Positions 13,551-25,655 of a stretch of 64,000 bases of DNA are shown piece by piece (the stretch's first letter is position 1; the number at the start of each line of letters is the position of its first letter). The stretch spans positions 452,547-516,546 of the forward strand of contig NZ_JAXCLA010000007.1 in NCBI RefSeq assembly GCF_034043675.1, given 5' to 3'. The position numbers were made by a program, and so were the translations under genes. The stretch comes from Roseateles agri. Lineage in GTDB: Bacteria; Pseudomonadota; Gammaproteobacteria; Burkholderiales; Burkholderiaceae_C. Under the pieces are notes generated by a model, which worked only from the letters and a program-made list of their open reading frames with translations, did not search any database and had not been told where the DNA came from.

Positions 13551-14627
13551 ATGCCGAAGAAGGAAGACCGCCGACTGCGAGTCGGCGTCCTGGGCTGCGG
13601 CCCGATCGCGCAGGCCGCTCATTTCGAGAGCTGCACCAAGGCGCGCAATGCAGACCTCTACGCCATCTGCGACGTGGCGGACGACCTGCGCGAGCGCATG
13701 GCCTGGACGCACAAGCCCGAGCGCAGCTATGCCGACTACGACGCGATGCTCGCCGATCCGCAGCTCGATGCCGTGATCATCGCCACCTCCGATGCCTTCC
13801 ACGTTCCCGCGGCGATCCGTGCGCTGGAGGCGGGCAAGCATGTGCTGTGCGAGAAGCCGCTGGGCGTCACCGTCGAGGAGGTCGAATCGCTGCGCGAGGT
13901 GGCCGCGCGTAGCGGCAAGCTGCTGCAGGTCGGGCACATGAAGCGCTTCGACGCGGGCCTGCAGGCGGCCAAGGACTTCATCGACGATGGCATGGGGGAG
14001 ATGCTGGCGCTGAAGGCCTGGTACTGCGACTCCACGCATCGCTATCCGATGACCGACGCGGTGCAGCCGCTGATGGTCACCAGCGCCGCGCGCAAGAAGC
14101 CCGCCGTCGACCCGAAGGCGGACATGCGCCAGTACCTGATGCTGGCCCACGGCTGTCACCTGGCCGATACGGCGCGCTACCTCGGCGGCGAGATCACGGC
14201 CGTGCGGGCGCGCCTGTCCGAGCGCTTCGGCGCGCGCTGCTGGTTTGTCGAGACCGAGTTCGCCAACGGCACCCTGGGCCACCTGGACCTGACCGTGGCC
14301 GTGCGCATGGACTGGCACGAAGGCTTCCAGATCTACGGCCAGAACGGCAGCATCCTCGCCAAGACCTACAACCCCTGGTACTACAAGAGCAGCGAGGTCG
14401 ACATCTTCCACGAGAGCGACGGCACCAGCCGCCGCGTGCTCGGTGCCGACGGCCACTTCTATCGCCGCCAGCTGGAGGCCTTCGCCGACGTGCTGCTGCA
14501 CGGCAAGCCGATGACCGGCGCCACGATCGAAGACGGCATCGCCTCGGTGCGGGCGATGGTGGCCATCGTGCGCAGCGTGGACAGCGGCGAGCGGGTGCGC
14601 CTGGCCGACGTCGAGGGGAGCGTCTGA
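13551..14627 (+). CDS. Gfo/Idh/MocA family NAD(P)-dependent sugar oxidoreductase
   Basis: N-terminal GxGxxA Rossmann motif (VGVLGCGPIAQ) and EKP motif. Confidence 0.85.
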   Translation: MPKKEDRRLRVGVLGCGPIAQAAHFESCTKARNADLYAICDVADDLRERMAWTHKPERSYADYDAMLADPQLDAVIIATSDAFHVPAAIRALEAGKHVLCEKPLGVTVEEVESLREVAARSGKLLQVGHMKRFDAGLQAAKDFIDDGMGEMLALKAWYCDSTHRYPMTDAVQPLMVTSAARKKPAVDPKADMRQYLMLAHGCHLADTARYLGGEITAVRARLSERFGARCWFVETEFANGTLGHLDLTVAVRMDWHEGFQIYGQNGSILAKTYNPWYYKSSEVDIFHESDGTSRRVLGADGHFYRRQLEAFADVLLHGKPMTGATIEDGIASVRAMVAIVRSVDSGERVRLADVEGSV

Positions 14628-15484
14628 TGCAGCTGGGCATCTTCGCCAAGACCTTCGCCGGCACCGATCCGGCCACCGTGCTGGCCGCCGCGCGGCGCGC
14701 CGGCTACGCGACCGTGCAATACAACATGTCCTGCTCCGGCCTGCCGTCGATGCCCGATGCGATCGATCCCGCCGTGGCCACCGCCGTCGGCGCGCAGTCG
14801 AAGGCGCAGGGCGTGGCCATGGCCGCCGTCTCCGGCACCTACAACATGATCCATCCGGACCCCGCCGTTCGCACGGCGGGCCACGCGCGGCTGGAGGCGA
14901 TCGCCGGTGCCTGCGCGGCCATGGGCACGCGGCTGATCACACTGTGCACCGGCACGCGCGATGCCAAGGACATGTGGCACGAGCATCCCGACAACCACAC
15001 GGCTGCGGCCTGGAGCGACCTCGTCGAATCGATGCGCACGGCCATCGCCATCGCCGACCGACATGACCTGGAGCTGGGCATCGAGCCGGAGCTGGCCAAC
15101 GTGATCGATTCGGCCGCGAAGGCGAAGGCGCTGATCGACGAGATCGGCAGCCCGCGCCTGCGCATCGTGCTGGACCCGGCCAACCTGTTCGAGGTGCAGC
15201 CGGTGGAGCAGCAGCGCCGCATCGTGGCGGACGCGATCGAGCTGCTGGCCGACCGCATCAGCCTGGCCCATGCCAAGGACCGCCATGCCGACGGCCGCTT
15301 CGCCACCGCCGGCACCGGCGTGCTCGACTACGCGCACTACCTCTGGTGCCTGCGCGGCGCCGGCTTCGACGGGCCGCTGATCACCCACGGCCTGGCTGAG
15401 AGCGAGGCGCCCGGTGTCGCGCAATTCCTGGAGCGCACCTGCGACGAGCTGGGCATCCTGCTGGCCACCGGGCGGGCGGCATGA
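14627..15484 (+). CDS. sugar phosphate isomerase/epimerase (xylose isomerase-like TIM barrel)
   Basis: ATGA overlap with the upstream gene. TIM-barrel AP-endonuclease 2 family signature. Confidence 0.8.
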   Translation: MQLGIFAKTFAGTDPATVLAAARRAGYATVQYNMSCSGLPSMPDAIDPAVATAVGAQSKAQGVAMAAVSGTYNMIHPDPAVRTAGHARLEAIAGACAAMGTRLITLCTGTRDAKDMWHEHPDNHTAAAWSDLVESMRTAIAIADRHDLELGIEPELANVIDSAAKAKALIDEIGSPRLRIVLDPANLFEVQPVEQQRRIVADAIELLADRISLAHAKDRHADGRFATAGTGVLDYAHYLWCLRGAGFDGPLITHGLAESEAPGVAQFLERTCDELGILLATGRAA

Positions 15485-23445: not shown

Positions 23446-24483
23446 ATGGCCCGCCCCATCACCCTCTTCACCGGCCAATGGGCCGACCTGCCGCTGGCCG
23501 AACTCGCGCCGCTGGCCAAGCGCATGGGCTACGACGGCCTGGAGCTGGCGTGCTGGGGCGACCATTTCAATGTGCGCGAGGCGCTGGACTCGCCGCGCTA
23601 CGTGGCCGACAAGCGCGCGCTGCTGGCCGACCATGGCCTGCGGTGCCTGGCCATCGGCAACCACCTCGTCGGGCAGGCGGTGTGCGACCTGATCGACAGC
23701 CGGCACGAGGCCATCCTGCCCGACCACGTCTGGGGCGACGGCGACCCCGAGGGCGTGCGGCAGCGCGCCGCGCTGGAGATGCAGGCCACCGCACGCGCCG
23801 CGGCGGCCTTCGGCGTCAGGACGGTCACCGGCTTCACCGGCTCGTCGATCTGGCATTCGCTGTTCGCCTTCCCGCCGACCTCACAGGCCTACTGGGACGC
23901 GGGCTATGCGGACTTCGCGCGCCGCTACACGCCGATCCTCGATACCTTCGACGAGGTTGACGTGAACTTCGCGTTGGAGGTCCACCCGACCGAGATCGCC
24001 TTCGACATCGCCACCAGCGAGCGGGCGCTCGATGCGGTCAAGCACCACCGCCGCTTCGGCTTCAATTTCGACCCGAGCCACCTGGCCTACCAGGCGGTCG
24101 ACTACATCCGCTTCATCCGCCAGTTCGGCCCACGCATCTTCAACGTCCACATGAAGGACGTGTGGTGGAACAAGGGCGACGGCACGGTGGGCACCTTCGG
24201 TGGCCATGCGAGCTTCGGCGATCCGCGGCGCAGCTGGGACTTCCGCAGCGTCGGCCGCGGCATGGTGGACTTCGAGTCGCTGATCGTGGCGCTCAACGAC
24301 GTGGGCTATGCCGGGCCGCTGTCGGTGGAATGGGAAGACAGCCGCATGGATCGCGTCCGCGGCGCGACCGAGAGCGCCGCCTTCGTGCGCCGCCTCGACT
24401 TCGAGCCCGCGCACGGCGCCTTCGATGCGGTGTTTGACAAAAACAAGCAGCAAACCTCCAAGCGCGGAGGCATGGCCGGATGA
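23446..24483 (+). CDS. sugar phosphate isomerase/epimerase (xylose isomerase-like TIM barrel)
   Basis: Second TIM-barrel paralogue, larger (345 aa). Confidence 0.8.
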
Positions 24484-25655
24484 TGAACGCCCTGAATCGT
24501 TTCCCCCGCAAGCTGCGCTACGCGATGGTGGGCGGCGGCCTCGATGCCTTCATCGGCTCGGTGCACCGCCATGCGATGGCGCTGGATCATCACTACGAGC
24601 TGGTGGCCGGCGCGCTGTCCTCGACGCGCGAGAAGTCCATCGCCTCCGGCCGCGAGCTGGGTCTTGCCGACGATCGCAACCACGGCAGCTGGCAGGAACT
24701 GCTGGACGACGAGCTGAAGCGGCCGGCGCACGAGCGCATCGACCTCGTCGTGATCGTCACGCCCAACCACATCCACTTCGAGGTGGCGCAGGCCTTCGCC
24801 GATGCGGGCATCCACGTCGTCTGCGACAAGCCGCTGGTGCACACGTCGGAGCAGGCGCAGCAGCTGGTCGACACGGTGGCGCGCCGCGGCGTGGTCTTCG
24901 GCGTGACCTACAACTACACCGGCTATCCGATGGTGCGGCAGGCCCGCGAAATGGTGCGTGCCGGCGTCATCGGCCCGGTCCGCAAGGTGGTGATGGAGTA
25001 CCACCAGGGCTGGCTGGCGACCCTGCTCGAAGCCGGCAAACACAAGCAGGCCGACTGGCGCACCGACCCGGCCCGCACCGGCATTGCCGGCGCGATCGGC
25101 GACATCGGCTCCCATGCGGAGAACCTGGTCGCCACTGTGACGGGCCTGGAGATCGAATCGCTGTGCGCGGACCTGACGACCTTCGTGCCCGGCCGCCGCG
25201 TGGACGACGACGGCAACCTGCTCCTGCGCTTCAAGGGCGGTGCGCGCGGCGTGATGGCCATCTCGCAGATCGAGGCCGGCAACGAGAACGACATCCGCCT
25301 GCGGGTGTTCGGCGAGCGCGGCATGCTCGACTGGCAGCAGGAGGATCCGAACCGCCTGATCCATGCGCCGCTCGACGGCCCGCGGATGACGCTGACGCGC
25401 GGCTCCACCTGGCTCAGCGAAGCGGCGCTGAAGGCCTGCCGCATGCCGACCGGTCATCCCGAGGCCTTCATCGAGGCCTTCGCGAACGTCTACATCGGCG
25501 TCGCGGCCGACATCCATGCGCGCGTGGCGACCGGAAAGCCGGCCACCTTGGAGGATGCAGAGTACCCGCGCGTGGAGGATGGCGCACGCGGCGTGCGCTT
25601 CATCGAGAAAACGGTGGCGTCCTCGAAGTCCGAACTGAAATGGACGCCGTTCTAG
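24480..25655 (+). CDS. Gfo/Idh/MocA family oxidoreductase
   Basis: Rossmann N terminus and EKP-like motif CDKPL. ATGA overlap with the upstream gene. Confidence 0.85.

Follow-up and report, generated by a model that had tools for sequence, protein, structure and literature searches.

A locus in Roseateles agri where two sugar-catabolic modules may have come together under one ROK-family repressor

We examined a stretch of 64,000 nucleotides (nt) from Roseateles agri (RefSeq assembly GCF_034043675.1, contig NZ_JAXCLA010000007.1, positions 452,547 to 516,546 of the forward strand), referred to here as the window, in which a Gfo/Idh/MocA oxidoreductase gene and a xylose-isomerase-like TIM-barrel gene stand side by side twice. 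A first-pass annotation made from the sequence alone had linked both pairs to 3-keto-sugar chemistry. Domain calls were based on Pfam, family membership on NCBIfam models with curated bit-score cut-offs, and structural relatives on PDB matches. The window has a G + C content of ~68%, and it is most closely related to Burkholderiales, among them Rhodoferax, Albidiferax, Leptothrix and Sphaerotilus. Genes on the forward strand run unbroken from 8337 to 25655. All 17 carried the Pfam domains under which they are described here, and every gene that the first-pass annotation had named was recovered where it had been placed, on the forward strand and in the same family, as an open reading frame (ORF) with a strong Pfam E-value. 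We refer to the first ATP-binding cassette (ABC) importer and the genes that follow it as module 1, to the second importer with TIM2 and Gfo2 as module 2, and to the five genes from Gfo1 to the ROK kinase as the cassette. The features are as follows.

8337-9203, forward: AraC-family regulator (Pfam HTH_18, E 5e-20, and AraC_binding), preceding the CUT1 importer
9252-9274: predicted operator 1, the 23 bp palindrome ATTGGTTTTGCAAGCAAACAAAT, in the module 1 promoter region 5' of SBP1; exact core match
9300-10595, forward: SBP1, CUT1 solute-binding protein of the glucose-binding-protein type (Pfam SBP_bac_1; PDB matches)
10685-11569 and 11559-12440, forward: two CUT1 permeases (Pfam BPD_transp_1)
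12447-13535, forward: MalK-type ABC ATPase (Pfam ABC_tran, OB_MalK, TOBE)
13551-14627, forward: Gfo1, Gfo/Idh/MocA oxidoreductase, first gene of the cassette (Pfam GFO_IDH_MocA, E 1e-24)
14627-15484, forward: TIM1, xylose-isomerase-like TIM barrel (Pfam AP_endonuc_2, E 1e-33)
15481-16296, forward: serine alpha/beta hydrolase of the esterase/lactonase type (Pfam Abhydrolase_1), sharing 4 nt with the end of TIM1
16293-16991, forward: divergent member of the ribulose-phosphate 3-epimerase (RPE) family (Pfam, E 8e-41)
16988-17962, forward: ROK sugar kinase (NCBIfam ROK_glcA_fam, below cut-off)
17959-18531, forward: HAD phosphatase of the YqaB/beta-PGM family (NCBIfam PRK10725, 122 against a cut-off of 215)
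18571-19788, forward: ROK-family repressor (ROK domain and N-terminal winged helix-turn-helix)
19846-19868: predicted operator 2, GTTTGTTTTGCGAGCGAACATAA, a second, degenerate version of the module 1 palindrome 5' of rbsA; exact core match
19900-21447, forward: RbsA-like CUT2 ATPase (Pfam)
21444-22448, forward: RbsC-like CUT2 permease (Pfam)
22487-23443, forward: RbsB-like CUT2 binding protein (Pfam; PDB 4joq, E 3e-82)
23446-24483, forward: TIM2, long TIM barrel of the 2-hydroxy-3-keto-glucal hydratase / SCO6571 family (Pfam AP_endonuc_2, E 1e-37)
24480-25655, forward: Gfo2, Gfo/Idh/MocA oxidoreductase of the 3v5n clade (PDB 3v5n), putative 3-keto-hexose reductase

Because neighbouring genes overlap by 1-4 nt at most junctions, we read the locus as tightly packed operons; the only sizeable gaps lie 5' of SBP1 (96 nt) and 5' of rbsA (111 nt). 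A sigma-70 promoter scan found no promoter, and no iol gene, GMC dehydrogenase or glycoside hydrolase turned up in the window. A strong terminator-like hairpin (10610-10637; 12 bp stem followed by a T-run) lies between SBP1 and the permease genes. A hairpin between binding-protein and permease genes is the usual arrangement that allows excess binding protein to be made.

The description of one Gfo/TIM pair occurring twice holds at the level of the superfamilies and fails for paralogous duplicates. Gfo1 and Gfo2 could be aligned over only 78 residues of the Rossmann domain (31% identity), and TIM1 and TIM2 are 25% identical over 203 residues (E 2e-4); this pairwise comparison ruled out a duplication as the source of the two pairs. 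That each pair has an importer of its own was borne out. The CUT1 binding protein is of the monosaccharide (glucose-binding protein) type.

A TIM1 profile run against a single genome of each species revealed relatives in 525 genome stretches, and 80 of these loci were fetched and examined for synteny. The cassette Gfo1-TIM1-hydrolase-RPE-like-ROK kinase kept the same order and orientation throughout. All 75 loci whose upstream sequence was long enough have Gfo1 (68-85% identity); of the 80, 75 have the alpha/beta hydrolase, 72 the RPE-like gene and 63 the ROK kinase. Several loci without the ROK kinase have a PfkB kinase directly 5' of Gfo1 (best NCBIfam match tagatose kinase, 272 bits), which suggests that a kinase step is required and that the kinase family is interchangeable. 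The hydrolase, RPE-like and kinase genes, which the first-pass annotation had placed between the two pairs, belong to pair 1, because Gfo1 and TIM1 open the conserved cassette that contains them. The cassette ranges over alphaproteobacteria (Rhizobium, Sinorhizobium, Mesorhizobium, Agrobacterium, Aureimonas, Labrys and Rhodobacterales) and betaproteobacteria including Rhodoferax and Leptothrix, and more than 5,000 metagenomic proteins are related to it. The importer that accompanies it varies: ~15 loci have an SBP1-type CUT1 system (66-78% identity), S. meliloti and others a CUT2 system, and the Leptothrix and Sphaerotilus loci none. TIM2, Gfo2 and the Rbs-type importer of the window lie outside the cassette. 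The HAD gene is nearly absent from the 80 loci and essentially confined to the genome of the window, and was rejected as a pathway enzyme because related loci lack it; the AraC gene, beside module 1 in none of the 80, was rejected as part of the conserved system. In Rhizobium johnstonii 3841 the cassette sits on plasmid pRL12, and its RPE-like gene, pRL120033 by position, is annotated as a putative allulose-6-phosphate 3-epimerase and is non-essential. The literature searched yielded no functional study of S. meliloti SMc03810-16, R. leguminosarum pRL120029-34 or this combination of enzyme families. Module 1 is an orphan cassette without a characterised member.

The proteins of module 1 were compared with characterised families one by one. 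SBP1 matched PDB entry 4r2b (E 3e-151), presumably the structure of an Ochrobactrum protein with glucose bound, two sugar-binding proteins of Pseudomonas, 5dvf and 8hqq (E 1e-117), the former presumably the glucose-binding protein of P. putida, and a Thermus "glucose-binding protein" (2b3b, E 3e-50). Because these matches are of the glucose-binding type, the substrate of module 1 is probably a glucose-like monosaccharide and not an oligosaccharide. Gfo1 scored 130 on the IolG model (cut-off 355) and 74 on the LgdA model (cut-off 650). The only characterised sugar enzyme to which it could be aligned over its full length was E. coli YcjS, a D-glucoside 3-dehydrogenase (24% identity, E 5e-21); its best PDB match, DgpA (7xr9, E 1e-22), covers the N-terminal 145 residues only. 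The Gfo1 family retains the lysine of the EKP motif and carries a conserved 8-residue insertion (R-x-Y-x-M-L-A-H, residues ~190-205) between the canonical catalytic Asp and the G-x-H of the catalytic loop. This insertion does not occur in YcjS, LgdA or Gfo2, and the active-site geometry of Gfo1 may be unusual.

Among solved structures TIM1 has no near relative. Its family profile matched UlaE (E 4e-6) and D-tagatose 3-epimerases (E 7e-5) in the PDB, and AtOGE (8bvk) at E 0.004 over ~60 residues. The best Foldseek matches of its AlphaFold (AF2) model, which has a mean predicted local distance difference test (pLDDT) value of 86, were UlaE and L-ribulose, D-allulose and D-tagatose 3-epimerases, with TM-scores of 0.72-0.82 and identities of only 15-20%; 8bvk was not among the best 50. 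Residues E153, D183, H215 and E260, invariant in the family, fit a four-residue metal site. TIM1 resembles 2-ketose 3-epimerases and UlaE/SgbU (L-xylulose-5-phosphate) rather than beta-eliminases, by profile (E 4e-6 to 1e-4) as well as by predicted fold, although it scored 36 against a cut-off of 317 on the UlaE model and, as read from the sequence, has Asn (D-P-A-N) where the D-tagatose 3-epimerases have His after the metal-binding Asp.

The alpha/beta hydrolase has a G-x-S-x-G serine, and its best PDB match is the esterase 5egn (E 2e-12). A role as a C-C hydrolase found no support in the sequence, the best PDB matches being an esterase and BpoC and not MhpC or BphD, and survives only in the speculative retro-Claisen reading set out below. 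The RPE-like protein scored 142 on the rpe model (cut-off 213) and 113 on the AlsE model (cut-off 271; E 1e-32), and the ROK kinase 215 on ROK_glcA_fam (cut-off 260) and 107 on the allose-kinase model (cut-off 253; E 7e-31).

Of the known systems, E. coli ycjQRS, which converts D-gulosides to D-glucosides via 3-keto intermediates and lies in the ycjM-V cluster, is arranged like module 1: the genes of the Gfo dehydrogenase YcjS and the AP_endonuc_2 epimerase YcjR are neighbours that follow a CUT1 importer, and the cluster also encodes a HAD-family enzyme. An epimerase that acts next to a carbonyl also fits the fold neighbours of TIM1. Identities are low, at 24% over the full length for Gfo1 and YcjS and 24% over 135 residues for TIM1 and YcjR (E 4e-4); the window lacks a YcjQ-type Zn dehydrogenase and a phosphorylase, whereas ycj lacks an alpha/beta hydrolase, an RPE-like gene and a ROK kinase.

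For module 2, TIM2 matched SCO6571 (2zds, E 2e-118) and 8ro4, deposited as a 2-hydroxy-3-keto-glucal hydratase (E 2e-41, residues 17-328), and the alignment with 8ro4 matches the metal motifs E-x-H-P-x-E, DPSH, H-x-K-D and EWE. TIM2 is ~32% identical to orthologues of AtHYD; with the long TIM barrel encoded in the lgdA cluster of an Arthrobacter agilis plasmid it shares 53% identity over 333 residues. That cluster comprises LgdA (747 bits against a cut-off of 650, our positive control), an LgdB1-type short TIM and the long TIM, which by context and length would fit the "LgdB3" class of PMC10066097. TIM2 and the LgdB1-type Arthrobacter protein share 25% identity over 130 residues, and the sole NCBIfam match of TIM2 is IolE (36.5 against a cut-off of 290). 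Strong PDB matches of Gfo2 were the uncharacterised structures 3v5n (E 5e-112), 3dty and 7d5m, with LgdA at only E 3e-26; its NCBIfam scores were 111 for LgdA (cut-off 650) and 62 for IolG (cut-off 355). The pTi plasmid of Rhizobium rhododendri carries an AtHYD orthologue (84.5% identity) and, next in line, a Gfo gene whose product is 47% identical to Gfo2 and has the same PDB neighbours, with a CUT2 importer alongside. The Gfo protein encoded next to the AtHYD orthologue in Phaeobacter inhibens is 44% identical to Gfo2. The RbsB-like protein scored 88 on the RbsB model (cut-off 337) and 72 on the AlsB model (cut-off 335).

According to PMC10628242, AtHYD adds water to the glycal that the eliminase AtOGE releases, and the Gfo protein of the operon reduces 3-keto-glucose to glucose; LgdB2 and LgdC carry out the equivalent hydration and reduction steps (PMC7676230). 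By homology, TIM2 and Gfo2 match the hydratase and reductase of such an oxidise-eliminate-hydrate-reduce route for 3-keto-glycosides or levoglucosan. Pair 2 would be a hydratase and a reductase, and not a dehydrogenase and an eliminase. The proposal of 3-keto-sugar chemistry made in the first-pass annotation is supported for pair 2, given the match to 8RO4, the long TIM of the lgdA cluster and the Gfo genes beside AtHYD orthologues, and is not supported for pair 1, TIM1 resembling UlaE and ketose 3-epimerases and showing no meaningful similarity to the eliminases.

Neither known route is present in full in the window. The A. tumefaciens GlycDH-AtOGE-AtHYD-Gfo operon for breaking down O-glucosides without hydrolysis (Nat Commun 2023, PMC10628242; 8RO4, 8BVK) resembles module 2 in the homology of TIM2 and AtHYD, the Gfo2-type neighbour, the adjacency of the hydratase and Gfo genes and, as on the R. 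rhododendri pTi, a CUT2 importer beside them. The window, however, has no GMC/FAD glycoside 3-dehydrogenase (no GMC domain) and no AtOGE-type eliminase, TIM2 falls in the SCO6571 (2ZDS) sister clade and not in that of AtHYD, and the regulator is a ROK protein here and a LacI protein there. The levoglucosan system LgdA-LgdB1-LgdB2/B3-LgdC (PMC7676230, PMC10066097) shares the logic of oxidation, elimination, hydration and reduction. TIM2 is a long (~325 aa) TIM of the LgdB2/B3 type, and ROK regulators and CUT2 importers are frequent neighbours of lgd clusters. The window has no LgdA orthologue, both Gfo proteins scoring below the cut-off of NF052479, and no short (~275 aa) LgdB1-type eliminase, TIM1 being 30% identical to that type over 74 residues (E 1e-3); Gfo2 is only ~30% identical to either Gfo of the Arthrobacter cluster. 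An assignment to levoglucosan was rejected for want of LgdA and LgdB1 orthologues. C-glycoside breakdown of the Dgp/Car type was likewise rejected: Gfo1 matched only the Rossmann half of DgpA, neither TIM1 nor TIM2 matched DgpB, CarB or DgpC at E <= 1e-3, and no DgpC-like small ORF lies between the genes, as the first-pass annotation had concluded.

Elsewhere in the Burkholderiales, module 2 forms a stand-alone six-gene operon, ROK-RbsA-RbsC-RbsB-TIM2-Gfo2, with unrelated flanks, and the CUT2 genes of the window are 71-88% identical to those of such operons (L085, L086, L088). A Deinococcus plasmid carries the TIM2-Gfo2 pair without the remaining module. Gfo2 has at least 8,000 metagenomic relatives, many of them 75-80% identical.

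The ROK repressor of the window is 60-66% identical to the ROK gene 3' of the kinase in betaproteobacterial module 1 loci and only 26-28% identical to the ROK genes of the stand-alone module 2 operons. By this comparison the repressor is a module 1 protein, and its candidacy as the native regulator of the Rbs-type operon was rejected. It combines an N-terminal helix-turn-helix with a ROK domain, and an inverted repeat is conserved in the promoters that it is predicted to control. Near-identical palindromes lie 5' of the first module 1 gene in loci L001-L004, L006, L007, L015 and L023, alphaproteobacterial loci have GTTTGTTT-N7-AAACAAAC at the corresponding position, and in all the palindrome is conserved 5' of module 1 in more than 25 loci. 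Within the window, operators 1 and 2 are the sole exact core matches and both are intergenic; with up to two mismatches allowed, 0.32 matches are expected by chance. Operator 2 is conserved in the metagenomic contig L090, and the second copy 5' of rbsA is confined to this lineage; the operator was not found upstream of the stand-alone module 2 operons, whose upstream sequences differ. The repressor probably binds the degenerate copy 5' of rbsA as well, in which case both modules would form a single regulon, and module 2 appears to have lost its own ROK regulator here and to have come under that of module 1. A third near-match to the operator core, the perfectly palindromic GTTTTGCATGCAAAA at 32962-32977, lies inside a class-V aminotransferase-like gene (31671-33347, reverse strand) and is probably due to chance.

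The nearest relatives of the locus are two metagenomic contigs (L090 and L091) with 92-94% nucleotide identity, the same module join and the same operator 2. Because they share both, the fusion of the modules predates the split of the two lineages. The contigs lack precisely the HAD gene (17957-18520 of the window) and TIM2 (23444-24480 of the window) and keep the remainder including Gfo2, whose start overlaps the rbsB stop codon. Beyond Gfo2, hipA/hipB take the place of the chemoreceptor gene of the window.

The P. inhibens plasmid pPGA2_95 has a CUT1 importer, a Gfo gene and a short TIM barrel divergent from LacI-HYD-Gfo. Its CUT1 binding protein is 37% identical to SBP1, and Gfo1 and TIM1 showed no homology to this first P. 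inhibens pair beyond the superfamily. Components of 3-keto-glycoside systems nevertheless recur beside module 1 in other genomes. Gfo2-like genes (42-45% identity) adjoin module 1 in Aureimonas (L020) and in a Mesorhizobium metagenome-assembled genome (L075), and in 13 loci its neighbours comprise an esterase, a class I aldolase, a PfkB kinase and a Gfo of the P. inhibens type together with an LgdB1-like TIM. A connection of module 1 with 3-keto-sugar metabolism is plausible by this analysis of neighbourhoods. Strain 3841 has a ThuA/ThuB-like pair 3' of the cassette; this adjacency was found in three loci of the R. leguminosarum group only and was not used as general evidence.

In R. johnstonii 3841 (L094; pRL12, record 21620-40269) and 12 similar loci, the cassette lies inside a larger sugar island. 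The 5' part of this Rhizobium-group island comprises an esterase, Gfo, LgdB1-like TIM, DeoR regulator, class I aldolase, PfkB kinase and UgpC-like ATPase, and in strain 3841 the 3' part comprises a CUT1 importer and the ThuA/ThuB-like pair. The island could be a complete 3-keto-disaccharide system.

We favour the view, with a probability of about 0.55, that the locus consists of two evolutionarily independent sugar-catabolic modules that were joined in this lineage under one ROK repressor. The modules are regarded as independent because their pairs share superfamily-level similarity only and because each module occurs without the other elsewhere. The importer of module 2 would bring in a monosaccharide-sized keto- or anhydro-sugar, TIM2 would hydrate a 2-hydroxy-3-keto-glycal to a 3-keto-hexose, and Gfo2 would reduce this to an ordinary hexose with NAD(P)H. 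In module 1, for which we infer both the order of steps and the substrate class, the CUT1 system would import a glucose-like monosaccharide, Gfo1 would oxidise or reduce a ring carbon, TIM1 as a metal-dependent enzyme would invert the centre adjoining the carbonyl, the serine hydrolase would open an ester or lactone, the ROK kinase would phosphorylate the resulting hexose or ketose, and the RPE-like enzyme would epimerise the sugar phosphate to a central metabolite such as fructose-6-phosphate or xylulose-5-phosphate. The ROK repressor would bind GTTTGTTT-N7-AAACAAAC 5' of module 1.

Several points weigh against this view. The enzymatic steps proposed for module 1 all derive from family membership because the cassette has no characterised member, and the NCBIfam scores of the module proteins in the window are all under the curated cut-offs. 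Module 2 on its own lacks the initial dehydrogenase and eliminase, and its substrate could be free 3-keto-glucose, a glycal or something else. The right arm of operator 2 is degenerate, matching at 5 of 8 positions. Loss of TIM2 with retention of Gfo2 in the nearest relative means either that the hydratase is dispensable or redundant there or that module 2 is decaying. Finally, the neighbours that module 1 has from 3-keto-glycoside systems may mean that the functional link between the modules is closer than the word "independent" suggests.

A different explanation, unlikely in our judgement though the strongest of the alternatives, is that the locus encodes one integrated four-step pathway like those of lgd and of the A. 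tumefaciens and P. inhibens clusters: Gfo1 would oxidise C3 of a glucoside or anhydro-glucose, TIM1 would eliminate the aglycone, TIM2 would hydrate the glycal, Gfo2 would reduce 3-keto-glucose, and the ROK kinase would phosphorylate the glucose. The predicted operator common to both modules with its one repressor, the module join kept in two lineages, the glucose-binding type of SBP1 and the frequent adjacency of module 1 to other 3-keto-glycoside components all agree with it, and known systems, such as that of P. inhibens, typically comprise two Gfo/TIM pairs and an ABC importer. However, TIM2 and Gfo2 are both missing from nearly all of the 80 module 1 loci, and the closest relative has lost TIM2. 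TIM1 is not significantly similar to AtOGE, the LgdB1-type TIM or the short P. inhibens TIM, and its fold neighbours are 3-epimerases. The pathway also leaves no role for the hydrolase and the RPE-like enzyme, though these are conserved as strongly as TIM1. We give little credence to the proposal of the first-pass annotation that there are two parallel dehydrogenase and eliminase pairs, each acting on its own anhydro-sugar, keto-sugar or glycoside supplied by its own importer. An importer does lie directly 5' of each pair, both pairs belong to the right superfamilies and pair 2 is related to 3-keto-sugar enzymes, but pair 2 corresponds to the hydratase and reductase (PMC10628242), pair 1 lies within a five-gene cassette with an epimerase-like TIM1, and the shared repressor and operator are left unaccounted for.

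Module 1 could be an analogue of the rare-hexose (D-allose/D-psicose) als pathway, with the ROK kinase phosphorylating, TIM1 isomerising or epimerising and the RPE-like enzyme converting allulose-6-phosphate to fructose-6-phosphate, with oxidised or esterified precursors supplied through Gfo1 and the hydrolase; we rate this a little lower still. The E. coli als operon (AlsB/A/C, AlsE, AlsK; D-allose) likewise combines an RPE-family 3-epimerase, a ROK kinase and an ABC importer, the RPE-like protein and the ROK kinase match the AlsE and allose-kinase models with low E-values, allose kinase is the nearest match of the ROK gene in the S. meliloti locus, and tagatose kinase that of the substitute PfkB kinase. 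The fold of TIM1 resembles D-allulose 3-epimerases, and the R. leguminosarum RPE-like orthologue is annotated as a putative allulose-6-phosphate 3-epimerase. Against this, the AlsE, AlsK and AlsB scores are all far below their cut-offs and the RPE-like protein scores higher on rpe, the cassette has no RpiB-type isomerase, the als operon has no Gfo, TIM barrel or hydrolase and a regulator of a different family, and the best-conserved proteins, Gfo1 and the hydrolase, receive an ad hoc role only. A more speculative and very doubtful reading makes module 1 a widespread and hitherto unrecognised route for 3-keto-aldohexoses or a glucose-like rare sugar without reduction to glucose: Gfo1 would make or accept the 3-keto sugar, TIM1 would epimerise it beside the carbonyl, the hydrolase would carry out a retro-Claisen cleavage of the C1/C3 beta-dicarbonyl to formate and a pentulose, and the kinase and RPE-like enzyme would yield xylulose-5-phosphate. 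If true, this route would supply the missing downstream steps for 3-keto sugars made by ThuAB or G3DH-type enzymes and explain the recurrence of the cassette beside 3-keto-glycoside genes. An inositol- or rhizopine-type (iol/moc) pathway, in which the Gfo proteins would be IolG or MocA and the TIM barrels IolE, IolI or MocC, is effectively refuted. IolG is the top NCBIfam model for Gfo1 and IolE the sole match of TIM2, and Rbs-type importers carry inositol in some bacteria; yet the scores on IolG (TIGR04380) and IolE (TIGR04379) are far under the cut-offs, TIM1 has no IolE match, the close relatives of TIM2 are the hydratase and SCO6571, and the window has no iolB, iolC, iolD, iolA or mocDEF. 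The first-pass annotation had been right that the iol partners are absent from the window.

Outside the sugar locus, a PhyH-family (Fe/2-oxoglutarate dioxygenase-like) gene (7251-8201, reverse strand) is divergent from the AraC gene, and the AraC regulator may control this gene instead of the sugar operon. The left end of the window (49-6064) holds maturation and accessory genes of a molybdenum hydroxylase (MoCoBD_2 domain, AAA ATPase, XdhC and MobA-like transferase) that are unrelated to the sugar locus. Towards the right, a tRNA-Gly(CCC) gene (52252-52325, reverse strand) adjoins a phage-type integrase (52328-53836), followed by a Dam-like D12 adenine methyltransferase (54053-54952); the region 52252-54952 is probably the border of an integrated island or prophage that extends to the right end of the window.

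That glycosides and anhydro-sugars can be broken down by way of 3-keto intermediates was recognised only a few years ago, and the gene content of such routes is still being mapped. The locus described here combines an orphan pathway, module 1, with module 2, which resembles the back end of a recently described 3-keto-sugar route. The hydratase/reductase pair would be a portable back end: many freshwater and soil Burkholderiales carry it, linked to an importer, as an operon of its own, and it is open to capture by the regulator of another pathway. The Gfo-TIM-hydrolase-RPE-kinase set is a well-defined five-gene cassette with a predicted ROK operator and a glucose-type binding protein, and because it occurs in tractable rhizobia (R. 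johnstonii 3841 pRL12 and S. meliloti), its substrate is directly testable. Naming that substrate would fill a recurrent annotation gap in plant-associated and freshwater proteobacteria.

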